DNA of 61,749 nucleotides from Vermamoeba vermiformis (lineage: Eukaryota): NCBI GenBank assembly GCA_045837725.1, contig JBEWZL010000237.1:124001-185749 (forward strand). The letters are read 5' to 3'. Below the pieces are notes generated by a model. It saw only the letters and a program-made list of their open reading frames with translations. It had not been told where the DNA came from and made no database searches. Within the stretch, counting starts at the first letter, position 1. Each line of letters opens with the position of its first letter. The translations under genes were made by a program, and so were the position numbers. Below are positions 3,106-58,540 of the stretch, in pieces.

Positions 3106-3306
3106 CTAGCTTTGTTCTTTCTTGCGTTCTTCAGCTCTCTTGCCTGTCGTGAGATCGTTGCCAAAGTCATCAATCTCGTGCGCTATGACACCTCCGTTCA
3201 ATACAGTGTCCGGGCGGCCTTTGGATCTGTTAGACGGACTGAGTTTCATCACTGTGCCGTCACGCATCTGCGTATCAGAGCGGGTTCCGTCGACGTTTGA
3301 GTTCAT
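3106..3306 (-). CDS. Putative 66-aa small protein of unknown function
   Basis: ATG sits in the caacATG context seen at other starts here. Composition looks coding, and AATAAA lies ~25 nt after the stop. No recognisable family. Confidence 0.4.
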   Translation of the reverse strand: MNSNVDGTRSDTQMRDGTVMKLSPSNRSKGRPDTVLNGGVIAHEIDDFGNDLTTGKRAEERKKEQS

Positions 3307-3492
3307 GTTGTATGCTTGGTGATTAAACAATACAATAGCGTTGCAGTTAAATATGTAAACGGTACATGATGTCGCACAAGGGCAATTCACATCTAGCTGA
3401 GAATTCACCAAAATTCTTTGATTTTATGTGGTGCGGCAATAACAACTTTAACTACACTGAATATCTCTATGCTTGCAAATGTACTGATTCTC

Positions 3493-5033
3493 TCAGCGAT
3501 CAGTATTGTTGTTGCGCACTAGACTGCTCATGTAATACTCGCCAGCTTTGTAACTCGAACGCACCATTGGACCACTCGCGCAGTACTGTAGGGAGGTTAG
3601 TGGGCATATATATCGCCAACAGACGAGTATATGTTACCTTGAATCCCATTTGCAACGCGCTCTCTTTGAGCTCCGCGAACACATCTGGATGCACGAACTG
3701 CTCGACTTTGAGGTGTCGTTTGGTAGGCTGCAAGTACTGTCCTAGTGTCACTGCATCCACACCCGCTGCACGCAAGTCGCGGAAGGTCTGCAGCACCTGT
3801 TCGCGCGTCTCACCGAGGCCCAACATGAGCGAGGACTTGGTGACGAGATCTGGTCGCACGTGCTTGGCGTGTTCGAGCACCTGCAGCGACTGTCGATACC
3901 CTGCTCGATAGTCGCGCACCCACCGCTGCAAACTGGCACGTGTCAGTCAGTGAATGATAACCAAATTAGGCAATAACGTACCTCTCCACGGTCTCGAGAT
4001 TGTGCGCGTAGACATCGAGTCCTGAGCGTGCCATCACCTCCACCCACTGCAACTCACCCTGTGACACGTGTCAATCACTCGCCTGCACCGTGATTGGTCG
4101 TACCTTGAAATCTCCCGTGAGACACTCCACTAACATCTCGGGCTTGAGAGCTTTGATGCGCTGTACCGTGGTGGCAAAGTGACGCGCGCCACTGTCCGGC
4201 AATTCATCGCGGTCAACGCTGGTCAACACCACGTAGTCCACGCCCCACGTGGTCACTGCGCGCGCTGTTCGCTCGGGCTCTTCGGGGTCCAGTGGCGGGG
4301 GAGTGCGACTGGTCTGCGCAGGGTCAGTGCTATTTTTAGAACTGCATCACGTGATTGCGTTAAGATCACGTGCTCGTTACCTTGACCGCGCAGAATCGAC
4401 AGCCCCTGGTGCACGTGTCGCCCATCAACATCACCGTGGCGGTGCTCTGTGTGCCACCCCAGCACTCACCTCGATCGATCGGTCAGCTGCAATGCACGCA
4501 CAATCGAGCACTTACCTATATTTGGACATTTGGCCTCCTCGCACACCGTGTTCAGCTGTCGGGGGTGAGTACAATTGCTGGTGATTGCCTAATTTGGTAA
4601 CTTGATTACTGACCTCCAAGCCGCGCAGCTGCGATTTCATTCTTTGAAATTCCGCCCCGCTGGGAATCTGTGACTTGATCCAGGGCGGCAATCTTGCCTT
4701 TTTTGGTTGGGGAGTCACGTGATTGATTGGCCCTGGTTGAAGCGGCGGATCCACCTTGTTCTTGGTTCTGCGAATGTGTTATTTAAAGTTTGATCGTAGA
4801 CTATGCATTGCGTCATGTATTATCAAGTTGCTTCGGCTTACTCGGAGATATAATCATTCAGTTGCGGATCTTGCTGTTGCAATTTCTCGCGGAATGCATT
4901 TATATTCAATTTAGTTGTATAGGATCGCTTTTCATTGCGTGTAATTATTTTTCTTGTAATCTTGATGTCGTTAGTTCAATTTCAATGCAACTTTTGGTCA
5001 ACTTACGCGTTGGATTCGCGTCAAATTAATCAT
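3493..5033 (-). CDS. lipA: Mitochondrial lipoyl synthase (radical SAM), multi-exon
   Basis: Motifs [36 protein letters not shown] (CX3CX2C), [38 protein letters not shown] and [14 protein letters not shown]. Arg-rich N-terminal transit-like peptide from ATG 5033. Confidence 0.95.
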
Positions 5034-5185
5034 CGTAGCTTGGACTGACGTGCTTCACGCACGTTATATAAGCAACGTCAGATGTGGTTACTCACTGAGA
5101 AATGTGACTGCGAATGAGCTCGCTCTATATTTGGAGAGTGAAGTCACTTGAAATTTCCGAAAACTCTCGGAATTTGAGTTCAGCG

Positions 5186-6910
5186 TTTTTGTTTTTTACA
5201 AACCTTAGCGACAATGCAGATTAGTAACTGCAATTATGCCCAAAGGCAATTATTGGTAGTAAAGAGGGCGAGTTAGTGATTGAAATAGGAGTCCCGTACA
5301 GACCATTGTTTGAACTTAAGTATCTCTCTGAGGGCAAGTCCGTTGTTGAGTGGAAGAGACCTTTTGTAAAAATAATGGCTGTGGCATGCATTCTACCCTG
5401 CAAAGCATACTTACAAAAATGGCCATTCCAGGTGTAGTATTATAGACATGCCTTATCCAGACCGGATCCCCATCCTGGACTGAATGGGAAGGCTCAAAAG
5501 AACTGCCCAACCCTTAAGAAAGAGACATTGAATCCACCAGGGAGTCCGGTTGCTTTCCTGGACAATTTGATCCTGCAGCACAGATGATGGCGCAGCGGCT
5601 TTACCCTGCTTGGCAGGTTCTACAGTACAGCTGCCAAAGGAGGATGCAGCCTGGTTGGTCTGGCGGACGTCCTGTCCGTGGACATTGCGTCTGTCAGGGG
5701 TGCTGCGTCCGCTGAATTTAGTAATTGACCAACATATACCAAACTTTGCCATAAGCACCAGCGGACCCAAGAAAGACTACTATTGGCATCAGGAGGCTTT
5801 GGGCTAGCCGCTGGAGACTGAAAATGTCATTGTTCTGCAAAGAACTTAAGTACTAGAGCTTTGTTCTATATGCTGCAAAACCATTTAAACTTTGGAAATA
5901 CATAGTACTATCACTATATAATAGGAAGATATGAGTAATCGTCAAAGATATTGTAGTGACAGCACTTTGTAATTTTTCAGCTTAAGTATGAACCCATCCA
6001 TCAGCACATGTTTGGTACTACACAACTAGTAGTATTTTATGCAGGTGAAAATGGGTAGGCAGCTGTGCAGAACTCTTGTCTGCCAGAAAGTTTCGGCTAG
6101 CCAGAGGCAGGTAGTGGAAACTTGGGTTGGCAACCATGCAGAAGTCCCAGGTTCAATGGTTACTTAGTGCATAATGGTTACCCAACCAAAAAGTTCTTTG
6201 CAAACCCCCATATACTATCCAAAAGTTTTTACTTGTCTGGGACATGAGACTTGTCCAGGCTGGATAACTTAGCCGGGCTGGACATCTCACCTTGGCTGGC
6301 TATGTCATCCATGCTGGATTGGCCATCCTCCAATTGCATGCTGCCTCTGTTTGGTTTTTCACAGAGGATTGCTCAGCACCATCAAAGCAAAAAGAAGTCT
6401 GGCATAGCATTATTGCGTTAGAGCTACCTGAGAGAGTCTGGGAGGTCAATGTTCTAGCAGAACTTGCTGTTGTGTGTGCCTGGGAACGTTGGCTTGGGAG
6501 GTCTGGATCCAAATTGGAACCTTCTTTTTAGGAGTTGGATCCTGAGGTTTTGAGGCAGGACTTTTTCATGCCTTAGTTTGACAGTGGTGTGTTATTTATT
6601 CAAGCTTGCAGCCTATTATCAATGCTTTGATGTTTTTTCCCCATTATTTTCTCCCATTCGAAGTAGCTAGCACTAGTTGACTCTTGGCTTGCTGTATGAA
6701 CTGGTTCAGAGGCATCAAGACTTTCTCCTTGTGGTGTTCAATGGCAGTAACACATGCTACCATTAAACATTAATGATGTTAAGTGAGACGTACTTAGTTT
6801 TGGCTCTGCCGATGGGCAACAGAGCTGACAGTTCAGCCCTCTGCAACTATCGTTGATGTGGTTGCAAAAGGCCTCTTATGCGAATGAGTCCCATACCTAG
6901 CAAGTATACA
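5186..6910 (-). other. CpG-depleted, hairpin-rich segment with no convincing ORF (candidate structured ncRNA or RNA-derived element)
   Basis: Only 6 CpG in 5821-6780. At least seven stems with minus-strand G-U pairs. An A-rich run lies at the minus-strand 3' end (5186-5197). Confidence 0.5.
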
Positions 6911-6933
6911 AGAGTCTTTATTACACAGAGTGG

Positions 6934-7580
6934 TTACAAGAAAGGATTCTCTTCGAGTTCAGCCGCGCCTTCTGTGGGATAGACTGCCATCACACCGCCA
7001 CCACGGCACACGACGAGACCAAGTGTCCGCGTGTCACCTGTCAATTTGTACGAGTCCTCGGGGTCTAAAAATACAATATTCAGTCACGTGTTTGTTGAGG
7101 TCTCAAGCGCTAGCAGAATATATGCACTGCACGCACTTACCGCGCAAATATTCAATTGTTTCGTCGAGCACCAAGTTGACCAGGGTGTCGTATCCACGCA
7201 ACACACCTTTGACTGTGTACCGCATTAGTACTGCATTGATCGTCGTGCACGATGTTATTATTATTAACGGTAATATTATGCATGAGATCGATGAGTTATA
7301 AGCGCAAGAAAATGCGAATTAAAATAATGAAAATATTTTTCAATAATTATTCTGCGCCTAGTGTTGGATAATAATGTCCTATATGTACTGCCAGCAGCAT
7401 GAAATAAATTAAATAATTGCTAATAATGCGTGCGTACCTTCACGACCGCCAATAAACTTGACCACGATCTCTTTGTTCATATACGCGGTGAAGTCCAATA
7501 TATTCTCTTTCTTAGCCTGCAAATAACAACGGTGTTATATTAATTGTCGCAGTATTATTCTTCCAGAAGTTTCCTACCAT
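6934..7580 (-). CDS. LSM7: U6 snRNA-associated Sm-like protein LSm7, 4 exons (first coding exon is ATG only)
   Basis: Splices to M-AKKENILDFTAYMNKEIVVKFIGGREVKGVLRGYDTLVNLVLDETIEYLRDPEDSYKLTGDTRTLGLVVCRG...ENPFL*. Confidence 0.93.
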
Positions 7581-7711
7581 GGCTTGCGTGTGTTGCAGAT
7601 CTGATCCAGAATAAATAATTGCTGCAAGTGAAGACCACAACTCATCACGCGTGGTCATATACAATCATATACGAATCAGAGGTGTCATATAGCGCAGCAG
7701 TATAATCAACA

Positions 7712-8433
7712 ATGTCAACAGAAGCGAGACGAAGACTGATTCGCGATCTCAAAAAATTGAAAACAGATCCACCCCACGGCGTGAGTGCAGCGCCCTCAGC
7801 GGACAATATATTCTCGTGGCAGGCTATTATATTCGGGTACGTCGCGCGTGGGGGATTGAGTCACATCTGCGAGACTAACCAATTAATTGTTTCAGTCCTG
7901 AAGGCACAGAGTGGGAAGGAGGTAGTTCATATATACACTAGCACGATATATATATTGTTGCACGGCCTATTAATGCTGGTGCACTGATTGCATTCTGGAT
8001 CAGATCGCACTTCCGATCAAAAAAACAATTCGTCCCCCAGAGCTGATACTGATGCTGTGATATACAGGTACCTTCAGACTGTCGATGGAGTTCACCGAGG
8101 AGTACCCCAACAAGCCCCCCACCGTCAAGTTCATGTCGCGCATCTTCCATCCCAATGGTAACTCGATCGCGATCGACTTGACCTTCACTTCCACTAATCA
8201 TGCTATTCATAGTGTACGCAGATGGCAGCATATGCCTCGATATATTGCAGAACAACTGGTCCTCGATCTACGACGTAGGCGCAGTGCTGACCTCGTTGCA
8301 ATCGCTGCTCTCAGATCCGAATCCAAACTCGCCTGCCAATGTTGAAGCAGCGCGCTTGTTTCAAGAGAATAAGGCCGAATATTATAAGCGCGTGGCTGAT
8401 GTTGTAGAGAAGAGTTGGGAGTTTGTTGAATAA
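7712..8433 (+). CDS. RAD6: Ubiquitin-conjugating enzyme E2, Rad6/UBC2, 4 exons
   Basis: Motifs [48 protein letters not shown] and DPNPNSPAN. Confidence 0.95.
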
Positions 8434-8668
8434 TGTTTGAGCCACATCCGCTCTGTTGTTAATAGTCAGCTGTATTAAAGTAAACTAAGCCAGTGTATTG
8501 TACATAATGTGCTCTGTCCAGACCTTCATATGAATGCCTGCTGCACGAGCACACAGCGACTAGTTCAAAGCTGAATTAGGGCCTGTCAGTGTCATTCTCA
8601 GATCTGCGACGCAACACCACAAGTCAATTAGCGCTGAATTAATTAAATAATACGTATTATGATTAATA

Positions 8669-9273: not shown

Positions 9274-11552
9274 CTACTTGTCCTTATTTAGAAATTTTTT
9301 ACAAGGGTGGTAATCGAGCTTGAAACAGGGCGGAACAACAGCCGTGGTGGCACTCGTCGAGGACTGCGACGATGACGTGGCAGTGTGTTGCATGCTGCGC
9401 ACGTGCTCATGCGTCTGTTCGCGAATGAGACCGATCACGTGCTCCAACACCTCGCTGTCACACGTGTCACTCACGCCCAACCGCTTCAACACATCACGTG
9501 ACTGCTGATCACGTGACGGCGCGCTGGTGGCACGTGGCAGTGACTTGTTCGAGTTGTGCGGTGAGCTCACACTGCCCCGCGGACGTCGCGCAGTGTGCAG
9601 CGTGGAGTGGTGGCACACATAGGCCCTGGTCGACCACTCGTACAGTGTCGTGCGCACGTGATACAGGTACGACTCCTCGTCGGGCCACTGCCGCCGCGTG
9701 CTCAACACCGCCGCGAGCAGCAGCGAGGTGTTGCTGGTGAGTGGTCCCCAGAGCCAGGCCAAGTCTTTGCCACTATTTATCGGCTCATCTTCCAGGGCCC
9801 ACACTGTCGCGTAGTTGTACACGTGCTGCGGAATAACTGTGCTCTTCGACACTCCCACCAAGCGAATTCTGTTCACGGCGAGGTGTGCCAGGGTGAGTCG
9901 GTTGCCTAATTTGGTAGTGTCGCACCACTCCACCGCGTGATACTGGCCGAGCAGCAAATATGCCAGGGCACGCACGCGATCGCGCACGAGACTCTGATTG
10001 CTGCCCTGGATGATCACTGGTCTGCCGCGCAGCAGCGAGTATACCAGGGCTCGAATCACGTGCGCGGAGATTGTGCCGTGATGTCGACCAATCAGCAGCG
10101 AGAGCAGTCCTTGACCACGTGCTCCATCTTGATAAAATTCCGCGGGCCAGAGCAGATCTACCAGGGCCTGTTGTTCCGCACTGAGTCCGAGGTCACGTGA
10201 CTGGTAGTTGAAGTCGAGCAGTGGCGTCTGATTCATGAACAGCGAGGATGTCACGTGCGGGTCTACATTCGCAGTCACGTGATCCACTGGCTCCACGCGG
10301 TACAGCACGTGAGGCAGTTGAAATTTCAGTAATGTCGTGTGCAGTGAAGGTCGCAGCCTATTTAGGTAATAGTCACGTGACAGCAGTTCGGGCAGTGCGC
10401 GCAGACTGCCGCGCTGTTGAGTCACGTGCCCGTCAGCCACTAGCGTGACAGGAGTGCGGAACAACAGCGACTTCAACAGCTTGGGCGTGTAGTGTCGGTC
10501 AGTCACGTGATGATCAATCTCGCGCGCAATCTCGAGCAGTTTCTTGCAGTCCTCGTCAGCCTCGGAGTCAGACTCAGCCCCTGACTCGTTGTTCGTGCTG
10601 CTGCTCGGTTCTTCCGCCGAGTGAAATGAATTCTCTTCTTCGTCCTCGTCCAAGTCACGTGATTCCTCGCCGTCACGTGCTGCACTCGTCTCGGCCAGCA
10701 GTTTGCTCTTGAACGCCGTCAAATCTCCGATCACCTCCGACACGGTGCTGGGCTAAAAATAGCTCGCGTCAGTGCTGGCAGTGGTGCGCAGTGACTTACC
10801 GTGGGCGGAATAACAGGCACGTGATCGTCGTTCTTGTCCTCGCGCACCGGGCCCTGCGCCATGACGCGCTGCGTGAGCTGCAAATCAGCCAAGCGACAGT
10901 CGAGCTCGTGCAGGAACAGCGCGTTGTTGTGCTGCTTGAGCGCCTCCATCACCACGCGCAGATCTCGCGCCATCTCCGAGAAGTGGCGATCGATCTTGTC
11001 CTGATCACGTGTCACGTAGACCAGGGCCAGGGGTCGCTGATAGCCACGTGCCTCAATGTCCAGCACGTAGAAGTGCACCACCACGGCGTGCACCACGTGA
11101 CTGGCACCGTTCAGTGGATCTGCACCACGCAGCACGGGGGAAGTGGCGGGAGATAGCGCGGGAGATGAGAGTACTGCCTTATAAGGCAATTGCATCACGA
11201 CAGTCCAGTGCTTGGTCCACGTGACAGGCTCGACACTCATGAAGCGCAGCACAAAATGATCGATCGGCAGCTGCGTCATGGCCTCCACTTGACTGCTCGC
11301 CACGTGGTCTGAAATCCACGCGCACGTGACTGACACGCCACTCAGCGAGGGACTGTCGTGGTCAGCGCGCAGCTCGTAGCCAGGATAGTGATGCAGCTCT
11401 GAGAGGTGCACTGCCGCGTCATTGCTGCTATTTATAGCCTCAGATCCGTTGTTGGTCAGCTCTTTGCCGCTCTGTTCTGCTGCCGTGAGTACGATGCGCG
11501 CGATAGGTCCTTCGATCTCACTGAACTCTGCTAATATAATGCAGTCACTCAT
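9274..11552 (-). CDS. SMCR8/folliculin-like longin-DENN protein, 2 exons
   Basis: N-terminal IILAEFSEIEGP and LDIEARGYQRPLALVYVT match SMCR8-type uDENN motifs. YSLLRGRPVII lies in the cDENN. In-frame intron 10799-10753. Confidence 0.75.
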
Positions 11553-55104: not shown

Positions 55105-56524
55105 ATGTTCCAAGCTAAGTTATTTGTATTGCTTTTATTCGTCGCTTCGGTCTGGACGGATTGCGTCTTGCAACCAGGCACGTCGGTTTACCCGACCACT
55201 ATTACGAACCCAACAGGAACCATTACCTTCGATGATCTTGGTCTTTCAGGCTCGCTTGGATGGGTTTACACAAGCTCTCCTCTAACTGTATACAATGCCA
55301 ACGGTATTACCGCGGTAGTTACTTCTCCCTCCGGTTCCATTACCACATCGGCGACTGGATTTACAAATACCGATGTACAATGGGTTGGCGGCGCGAATGC
55401 TTGGTCAACAAACGATGGCAACGTTGGTTACTATGCCCAATATAACGTCAAAATTACGTTTACCCCGCCAGTCTATAGTGTTTCTATGCGATTGGCTGGT
55501 TCACCTAGTACTTCTAGTCTTATTATTTACGACTCCGATGGCAACGAGATCAGCTGCCTCCAAGAATATGGAATACCAAGTGTTAAGAACGGTTACACAA
55601 CTCAAGGCTTTGCTGTCGGTAACCCCTATTGCAGCACTTCTTTTGAATGGATATTTGGTGGCAGACCAGATTCAGTTTGGTAAAGATTGAAAATTCTATC
55701 AACTTGTCTAATCCGTTCTTCAGCAAAACGCTTATGCACGGCAAATTCATGCGATCCGAATGCCGATTGCATAAACAACTCAGCCAACACGGGAGTCTTA
55801 TGTTCTTGCAAAAGTGGATACGAAGGAGACGGCACAACTTGCACTGGTAATGAGCCTATTTTTGAGAGTAATATATTTCTAATTACGCTTACGTTAGACA
55901 CTAACGAGTGCAATGTTCCAACTAGTCCGTGCCCTCCTCACTCCACGTGTTACAATTTGCCAGGAACTTATAACTGCACCTGCGACAGCGGTTACGAACA
56001 GAATGGCACGGACTGCATCGGTGAGTGGCGTATTGTTGCTGCGTATATGTATTAATAATACACCGTAGATATTGATGAGTGCCCGACTGTTACATGCGGA
56101 GCTAACGCTGCTTGTGAAAACTTACCGGGTTCGTTCCAATGCGTGTGCAACAGTGGCTACGAAGGAGACGGTTACAATTGTACCGGTATGTAATAGTAAT
56201 TTGGGCCAGCAAGTATAGTTCTAGAGTTCTAACATCTTCGCAGACATTGACGAGTGCAAGCAAAACCCGTGCGATCCAAACGCGCTATGTACCAACGTAC
56301 CAGGTTCGTTCAATTGCACTTGCAATGAGGGCTACACCGGTGATGGCCTCTCTTGTGTGGGTCCGCCAGTGGCTACACCCGTTGCAGCTCCGGAATCTGT
56401 GCCTGTCGTAGCCGCGCCCGTGAAGCAACCTGTCGCTGCACCTATTTCCAAGGTCAGCAGTGCGTCATTTGGTCGTGCAGCTTTGACTGTCGTTTTGGGT
56501 CTTGCTGCAGTGATTATTTTGTAG
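55105..56524 (+). CDS. Secreted protein with four EGF / Ca-EGF domains and a GPI-like C-terminus, multi-exon
   Basis: Signal peptide. Ca-EGF exons beginning DTNEC and DIDEC ([18 protein letters not shown]). Hydrophobic end [15 protein letters not shown]. Confidence 0.82.
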
Positions 56525-56819
56525 TGTCAGAGTATTTTAATTTTGTATTGACAAGAGAGGAATTACCGATCTTCTTCCAGTATTAAAATTCAAATAATTA
56601 AAGAATAATTTCTACCGATAGTACGTGCGAACACTCAATTTTATTGGCTGAAATAAAATAAAAATAAATATTTCAAATTAAACATTGTAAATGTCGATCT
56701 GATAAGAATTGAAAGGACTTACTAGGGGCGAGGAACTATGCCAAACAGCGAGATAATATTGTAGTGTGGTAACGTAAAACGGCGTGTCTCTGGTTGTTTG
56801 TCGAGTTAATCAATAAAAA

Positions 56820-58540
56820 ATGGAGAGAGCAACAGATGACAATCCAGAAGAGCTCAAACAGCAAGCCAAAGAGTTGTATAATAAAGGCATAGCGCTGTTA
56901 GATGACTTGGATAAGAACCACGTCAAATATAGCAAAGTTGAAGGGATAGAGAAGTTTCGGCGGCGCGTGCAAGCAGAATTGATTTTTTAAATAATGTAAG
57001 CAGGTTCACCATGGATAATTAGACGCAGAATACAATTATTTAAGCAGCTAAATTAATTTAAAAATGTTGGTGAATTATTTCAATTTCTCGCAAATTTCTC
57101 TAATTTCAATCTCCCTTCTCCTCGATTATATTGCTGAATTTAGATCAATAATAATACTCTTTAAATATCGTCAATACTTGACAGACGCGCTAACGACCTC
57201 ATTTTCAGCTGATTACGAATCCAGCCGTGGCAATTAAAAAAACTCATGTAAATTGTACAAATTTGTATCATTATAGGTGCGTGCAATGTTTATTCTAATA
57301 ATTTTATCTCATTTTTTCTTAGCGCTGTGTACGAGACATTTTCAACGGAGAAAAACGTCGTGGCAGTTTTTAAAGTATTTGATTACCATAATAAGGTACC
57401 TTCCTTATCGTGCCAATATTGAATAGAGCATGAGTTAATTTGTCGCAGAATAAAATCAAGAAAGTTGAAGTTGACGTCGTGTCACACAACGGCTGCTGTT
57501 GGATCAAAGTGAAGGCCATGAAAGCGAGCTCAGTGCACAGCATTTCAATCGGAGACAGTTCTTACGGCGAGAAAAGTATTAACGACTTTGTTGAAGAGTT
57601 GATAGTAAGTGTGACTCGATGCTATTGAATTATAGTACTATGAGCACGTATTTATAACGTTCCAAGGGCTGTGCCAAACAACATGAAGTGCATTACAACG
57701 TGCCTGTTGTGGTCGTCAAGTTCAGCAAAGGCATCACTGAAGATGTCGCTGAAGAATTGCACGAGCTCGGAGCGATTGTCCACGGACCACTTTATGACGA
57801 GGAAAATCAGCCGGTGACTCGACCAGACCTCGTACACCCACATTTAATAGCACAGCTCGAGGCCATGGAAACAATCGAGTACCCGCGCCTCGTCAATTTA
57901 GACGTCACAGCGTTAATCAACATCAGCAGTGACGTCACAAACGGCGGTGCGTTCGTCGAATTTGACGATGAGATTTTGAATATGCAAGCACGAGAAGAAC
58001 AAATAGAGCAGTCAGTACCCAAGTTAATGAAGTTTTTGGAAGGTCGAGATGTGTTTATTACTAAGACAGCTCATGAAAAGTTTATTGGACTGTTGGAGCT
58101 CGTTGGAGGTTAGTTACGCGTCAAGTAGCAATAATTCTAATTACTAATGATGTCGTTGAAGGCGAGAAAGAGATTAAGCGCGGCAAGGAGTTTTTACAGC
58201 GCTTGAGAATTGTTGACGATGACCCCTCTGAACGCGTGATGAAATTGAAGAATGGTGCCAAGATACAAGATCAGCACAAGAAGATATTTGGCACGGGCGA
58301 CAAGCTCAAGGCAATCACAGTGTAAGTGATGAATAGAAGTCGATTAGAACGAGTACTAACACTTTCAAAAGTACTGGCAATCGATCGTTTGTCGCGGCAG
58401 CAGAGCACGCAGGAGTTAGTCTGAGTATTTTTTATCAACCGGCACGGGCCCTGACGGAGCAGAAAGCAATGCAAAAACAACAAATAGCAAACAATAGTAA
58501 TACACCAGTTGATGGCAGTACAAGCTCAAACACTGGTTAA
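56820..58540 (+). CDS. UPF0415 / C7orf25-like (DUF1308) protein, multi-exon
   Basis: Motifs VEVDVVSHNGCCWIKVKA, VNLDVTALINISSDVTNGG, IFGTGDKLKAITVTGNRSFV and QPARALTEQK. Confidence 0.85.

Follow-up and report, generated by a model that had tools for sequence, protein, structure and literature searches.

The interval between an LSM-domain gene and lipA, two neighbours on the minus strand, raises the question of whether a long non-coding stretch rich in hairpins encodes a large structured RNA or is simply the spacer between two genes. A first-pass annotation of the window (the whole stretch of 61,749 nucleotides that was analysed) had favoured the former for positions 5186-6910, picturing a folded minus-strand RNA. 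Its statement that no convincing ORF lies there stood, since the longest frame within 5186-6910 measures 107 aa from stop to stop. On balance we favour the latter reading, that 5186-6910 is an ordinary, fast-evolving composite intergenic spacer between two minus-strand genes with no discrete large structured RNA gene. The observations behind it are the gene order, the hairpins, the folding statistics and the lack of conservation.

At its upper end the spacer is bounded by the TAA stop codon of the LSM-domain gene, read from the sequence at 6934-6936 of the minus strand. The LSM domain (PF01423, E 1.3e-06) was detected on exon 7103-7225(-), and introns 7064-7141 and 7212-7438 of this gene are supported by RNA read joints. 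Its last exon corresponds to positions 4776-4838 of L001, a metagenome contig, with 90% amino acid identity. Downstream of the spacer, on the same strand, lies lipA, which encodes lipoyl synthase; RNA read joints place minus-strand introns in both genes. The non-coding gap between them runs from ~6933 down to 5034 (about 1.9 kb) and belongs to the window's longest stretch without an ORF of at least 90 aa. Judging from the ValRS encoded in the window, whose best named matches are to Planoprotostelium (64%), followed by dictyostelids and Physarum, the host organism is probably an amoebozoan that lacks close relatives among named taxa.

All seven stems listed by the first-pass annotation were found in the sequence of 5186-6910, and three of them proved free of gaps when checked: 6835-6847/6861-6873 (13 bp), 6803-6811/6817-6825 (9 bp) and 6735-6747/6757-6769 (13 bp). 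The non-Watson-Crick pairs of these three stems had been taken as a signature of RNA. All seven such pairs are indeed C/A on the plus strand, equivalent to G-U on the minus strand, but the one-sidedness failed once all gap-free helices were counted (31 G-U pairs in 12 plus-strand helices versus 30 in 14 minus-strand helices). Since G-U pairs are balanced across the strands over all helices, the count of seven out of seven reflects the choice of stems. Gap-free helices of at least 9 bp numbered 14 on the minus strand versus 5.85 +/- 2.3 in 300 shuffles (P 0.003), and 12 on the plus strand versus 8.2 +/- 3.0 in 300 shuffles (P 0.12). The difference between the two strands was not significant (P 0.15), and 14 helices were also reached by 2 of the 66 other tile-strands of the window. 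The middle of the spacer (5381-6734, assigned to neither strand) carries scattered helices, shows no collinearity with L001 and has no coding signal; among its helices are 5966-5954/5916-5904 (13 bp), 6070-6060/6028-6018 (11 bp) and 6182-6174/6137-6129 (9 bp) on the minus strand, and 6443-6455/6483-6495 (13 bp, 4 G-U) on the plus strand.

Both strands were folded with a pair span of up to 120 nt and compared with 25 dinucleotide shuffles; 200-nt sliding windows were also used. The fold of 5186-6910 gave z -3.45 on the minus strand versus z -0.92 on the plus strand. When G-U pairs were disallowed the strands became alike (plus z -2.41, minus z -1.96), which points to some excess of plain inverted repeats. 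The contribution of G-U pairing was more stabilising than expected on the minus strand (-88.5 versus -70.4 +/- 7.4 kcal/mol) and less stabilising than expected on the plus strand (-79.1 versus -102.7 +/- 9.3 kcal/mol). For 5801-6400, folded with the same span of up to 120, z was -3.56 on the minus strand and -1.67 on the plus strand, and in global folds of 5800-6400 both strands beat their shuffles (minus z -3.18, plus z -2.29). Because both strands of 5800-6400 fold well, DNA-level inverted repeats are indicated as much as RNA structure.

Dinucleotide shuffles are a narrow null, and 15 other segments of the window, nine of them ORF-poor gaps and the remaining six 1.7-kb tiles, were treated alike. 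Their 30 strand-values had a mean z of +0.25 (sd 1.67, range -2.93 to +4.89). The minus strand of 5186-6910 lies 2.2 sd below this mean and is the lowest of 31, about what selecting the most hairpin-rich stretch of 62 kb by eye would be expected to give. The strand difference in 5186-6910 is -2.53, and 2 of the 15 controls show one of at least this size. At the opposite extreme of the window, 56522-57657(-) had a fold much weaker than those of its shuffles (z +4.89), for which strongly skewed or low-complexity sequence may be the cause.

The sole relative compared, the distant contig L001, has the same gene order as the window (folliculin-like gene, UBC, LSM, lipA), with about 72-80% nucleotide identity in its coding blocks and 86% in one short 79-nt block of lipA. 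On the window's side, two adjacent ORFs at 9274-11552(-) gave weak Folliculin and Folliculin_C matches; three proteins from metagenomes or run assemblies match them at 86-88% amino acid identity, and the two ORFs probably form a single folliculin-like gene. The LSM-lipA spacer of L001 measures ~1.2 kb, next to neighbouring gaps of about 0.2-0.3 kb, and the window spacer is about 630 nt longer. Comparison of window 6930-5380 with L001 4843-5766 by sensitive blastn yielded no collinear similarity, only scattered 10-mers, and excess folding was absent from the L001 spacer (z +1.45 and +0.94 over 887 nt). Set against this one distant relative, neither sequence nor structure was kept in the manner of a conserved structured ncRNA outside the lipA-proximal part. 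The proposal of a folded minus-strand RNA survives in part. The minus strand beats both its shuffles and the plus strand, and some minus-sense structure at the RNA level is possible, above all in a 161-nt hairpin cluster that follows closely on the LSM poly(A) signal, but a single 1.7-kb RNA is unsupported, as its statistics fall within the tail of the controls and it is absent from L001.

The named classes suggested for such an RNA (RNase P/MRP, telomerase or a ribozyme) were not borne out by Rfam. No match above noise was found over 4500-7600 at E up to 10, where two noise hits reached 15.8 and 14.5 bits (gathering scores 249 and 58), and the whole window gave 0 matches at gathering scores. 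The RNase P or RNase MRP core (P4 helix, CR-I/CR-V) was detected by Rfam neither in 4500-7600 nor in the whole window. The first-pass annotation had itself seen no template or hammerhead core; a search with 16 telomere repeat units likewise gave no template, and no ribozyme family (hammerhead, HDV-like, twister or similar) appeared at E up to 10. With regard to a ribozyme-bearing retroposon or viroid-like replicon, Rfam gave no ribozyme core and no RT remnant was found. ARAGORN predicted 0 tRNA genes in the whole window, which covers tRNAs and tRNA-derived SINEs. Both strands of 5100-6930 held 0 box C/D snoRNA candidates, defined by a C box RUGAUGA and a D box CUGA separated by 40-160 nt, plus a terminal stem, even with relaxed C boxes allowed. 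The DUSE-like AAACCCCC was at chance level (2 found versus 1.63 expected), and a 16-base pattern scan of viral contigs returned 19 loci in which similarity never reached beyond about 20 nt (chance 19-mers).

Protein coding was assessed in the same region. GC content rises to 0.51-0.52 at 5400-5850, and the longest stop-to-stop frame (107 aa, 5456-5776, minus strand) sits within this GC-richer part, as might be expected of an orphan protein-coding gene with short exons. Such a gene is nevertheless very improbable. The codon score of the 107-aa frame was -0.047 versus 0.12-0.32 for the five true exons scored, its atlas recognition was 1129 versus the 2300 reached by 91 of 100 real proteins, the nine ORFs of the region that were scanned had no Pfam match, and no reading frame was conserved in L001.

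One local signal lies at the LSM end of the spacer. A poly(A)-signal-like AATAAA occurs 12 nt past the LSM stop (6917-6922, minus strand) and a second AATAAA at 6600-6595 on the same strand; either may be used as a poly(A) signal. In L001, TGTAATAAA likewise occurs no more than about 20 nt from the LSM stop, and a short 3′ UTR with TGTAATAAA close after the stop is common to the two loci. The three clean hairpins (13, 9 and 13 bp) form a cluster at 6735-6873 of the minus strand with 7 G-U pairs, which begins 44 nt past the proximal AATAAA and upstream of the second. Over 6885-6725 (161 nt), a sub-region chosen after the stems were seen, the minus strand had an MFE of -48.8 kcal/mol and z -3.52, which none of 200 shuffles equalled, versus z -0.95 and 35 of 200 shuffles as good for the plus strand. 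These values, the placement between the two hexamers and the seven of seven wobble pairs that suit the LSM sense strand would fit a narrower explanation, in which only the cluster 6873-6735 is functional, either as an LSM 3′ UTR element (if the AATAAA at 6600-6595 is used) or as a termination zone shielding the lipA promoter, and the rest is neutral. We consider this explanation unlikely, since the equivalent 161 nt after the L001 LSM gene are without such structure (z -0.73) and the sub-region was not picked blind. The arrangement resembles structured 3′ UTRs or terminator-proximal hairpins in having three sense-strand G-U hairpins 50-200 nt from the LSM poly(A) signal; it differs in that it has no counterpart in L001 and no known motif, and the mRNA end is putative.

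A second group of signals lies at the lipA end. On the minus strand, AUUUUUG overlaps the consensus 5′ splice site GUAAGU (5409-5420, with GUAAGU at 5414-5409). The Sm-like AUUUUUG had been noticed previously and is present, but at 5420-5414, one base off the position first assigned to it. The 12-mer at 5420-5409, ATTTTTGTAAGT, has a single occurrence on the two strands of the window, and L001 lacks the AUUUUUG/GUAAGU motif at the corresponding position. A branch-like CACUCAAC and, 87 nt beyond the 5′ splice site, an AG make an 87-nt intron from 5414 to 5328 of the minus strand possible; the splice-site motif with CACUCAAC could equally well belong to an intron within a leader upstream of lipA. 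An intron of this kind would also suit a lineage-specific minus-strand lncRNA of about 1.3-1.5 kb, possibly spliced 5414/5328, that starts just below the LSM poly(A) site and carries many local hairpins. This is a tentative explanation to which we assign a minor but real share of the probability. The folding excess is confined to the minus strand, the consensus 5′ splice site at 5414-5409 is followed by a plausible branch point and a 3′ site 87 nt downstream, a long ORF-free gap is kept in both genomes and there is no coding signal; however, neither sequence nor structure is conserved in L001, the statistics stay inside the tail of the window controls, and, with the LSM poly(A) signal at 6922-6917 and the first hairpin already at 6873, hardly any room for a promoter is left.

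A review describes fungal telomerase RNAs as ending in an Sm site with spliceosomal cleavage (PMC4993307). As portrayed there, the S. pombe TER1-type RNA is like the spacer in its size (~1.5 kb), in being non-coding and in carrying a 5′ splice site joined directly to a U-rich Sm-like site; the spacer differs in having no common-repeat template, no Rfam match and no conservation in L001, and in that its host is not fungal. The likeness raised the possibility of a telomerase RNA of the host, about 1.45 kb long on the minus strand and ending, as in fission yeast and filamentous fungi, at the Sm site fused to the 5′ splice site at 5420-5409; the size of the spacer fits, and no second 12-mer in which AUUUUUG overlaps GUAAGU occurs in the window. 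A search of both strands of both spacers for a permuted telomere template of at least 8 nt, using 16 repeat units (CCCTAA, CCCTAAA, CCTAA, CCCCAA etc.; the host's own may differ), nonetheless found none, the sole hits being chance-level matches to a 5-nt unit. A set of telomerase families is included in Rfam. Its telomerase models gave no match above noise over 4500-7600 at E up to 10. Moreover, motif and structure are missing from the syntenic spacer of L001, and the host groups with Amoebozoa, not fungi. The telomerase explanation is thus highly doubtful, and keeps a very small probability because the host's telomere repeat may be an unusual one. Amoebozoa receive only passing mention in the reviews examined, in which no telomerase RNA from this group was seen. 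The same slender chance is given to the spacer being a lineage-specific, ~1.45-kb minus-strand structured RNA that ends at 5420-5409 and could be an amoebozoan telomerase RNA with a template for an unusual repeat.

RNA-seq runs carrying the same species label as the DNA (X12-X14) were searched at a likeness of at least 90%. Their reads cover only lipA, LSM and UBC exons and are 90-99% like the window, mostly 90-95%. Depth was 0 in all bins of 5070-6839; as the strain is diverged and its non-coding sequence would drop below the 90% threshold, zero depth is no evidence on expression either way. Across 3300-8600 the same-label RNA-seq is mostly 90-95% identical in coding exons and nowhere at least 99%, and the species label may span cryptic species or strains with deep divergence between them. 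A further run, X10 (its kind guessed as RNA), yielded three short low-depth contigs that are compatible with DNA. One is identical to 6189-6333. A second matches 6191-6239 with three indels and then falls to about 80% likeness; it is a second strain, an allele or a paralogous copy. Read on the minus strand, two of this variant's differences in stem 6174-6182 would make G-U pairs out of A-U pairs.

A further rival reading is a non-autonomous mobile element in decay, or an insertion of the foldback type, with the hairpins as what is left of its inverted repeats. Among the points in its favour is the diverged second version of 6160-6239 that X10 contains beside the identical one. The excess of Watson-Crick-only complementarity on both strands and the additional 630 nt or so of the window spacer relative to L001 agree with this idea. 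We nevertheless judge it quite improbable. No other copy of the segment exists in the 61.7-kb window; there are no terminal inverted repeats and no long direct, terminal or tandem repeats, the best inverted pair being 26 nt at 73%; and the X10 variant may be merely another strain. A transposase or RT remnant, which would have explained 5186-6910 in another way, was searched for in six frames and with Pfam, and none was found.

In contrast to the middle of the spacer, its lower end shares sequence with L001. The start of lipA (4841-5033, minus strand), as read from the sequence, likely consists of an ATG at 5033-5031, a 27-nt (9-codon) exon 1, a 46-nt intron and exon 4975-4841; in a six-frame comparison this exon corresponds to L001 6069-6182 with 58% amino acid identity (E 4.9e-13). 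In the diverged strain, RNA reads connect 4751 with 4854 and have 31 letters in between that find no match, so that the strains differ in lipA exon 4975-4841. Upstream of lipA, at 5034-5380 of the minus strand, sensitive blastn aligned four blocks that keep one order in the window and L001: 5377-5347 (E 0.15), 5175-5154 (E 0.056), 5120-5082 (E 1.1) and 5066-5056 (E 7.9). A TATATAA lies at 5070-5064 on the same strand. Because these collinear blocks adjoin lipA, the lower ~200 nt of the segment (5186-5380) are assigned to the lipA upstream region, and the blocks may represent its promoter or control region. The A6-C-A5 run that had been seen as closing the 3′ end of a minus-strand RNA is present at 5197-5186, and falls within this part.

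Several further features of the lipA upstream region were observed. A 22-nt element, AAATTCCGAGAGTTTTCGGAAA, is 86% kept at the matching place (window 5154-5175, L001 5872-5893); it is an imperfect palindrome around TTCCGA/TCGGAA and a possible transcription-factor site. Among 200-nt windows of the plus strand, the one around this element, 5000-5199, is the most structured (z -4.0). In both loci, about 350-400 nt ahead of lipA, a TATA-like box (TATAAT / TATAAAAG) stands 16-24 nt upstream of CATTTT(T)G (window 5433-5445, L001 about 5738-5746), and this pair could mark an upstream start of the lipA leader or a small separate transcript.

Taken together, these results are most consistent with a composite spacer made of three parts. 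The stretch from 6933 to about 6600 would be the LSM 3′ UTR or termination zone, bearing the three clean hairpins; that from about 6600 to 5380 would be unconstrained DNA with scattered short inverted repeats; and that from 5380 to 5034 would be the conserved upstream control region of lipA. Any RNA across the spacer would be minus-sense, arising from the LSM 3′ UTR or read-through or from upstream lipA transcripts, and such minus-sense transcription would suffice for a mild advantage of the minus strand in G-U-tolerant folding. The interval resembles an ordinary tail-to-head spacer, with a stop codon and AATAAA on one side, a TATA-like box and ATG on the other, conservation only in its promoter-proximal part, and no coding or known RNA-family signal. 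It differs from one in being longer (about 1.9 kb) than neighbouring gaps, in having more short helices than most of the window, and in the minus-strand fold, the lowest z of the 31 strand-segments. Against the spacer reading stand the minus-only excess over shuffles, the z of -3.52 in the hairpin cluster and the gain from G-U pairs on the minus strand; the long ORF-free gap of the window together with the long spacer of L001 would fit a fast-evolving non-coding gene.

If the structured-RNA reading were true, the locus would hold a large structured RNA that is new, from a protist lineage that has received little study. The case shows that a hairpin-rich, G-U-biased stretch can be striking relative to shuffles yet lie within the spread of its own genome and be unshared by a syntenic relative. 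For the locus itself the gains are modest: a corrected lipA start with a likely mini exon, a conserved block upstream of lipA, and a possible three-hairpin element past the LSM gene.
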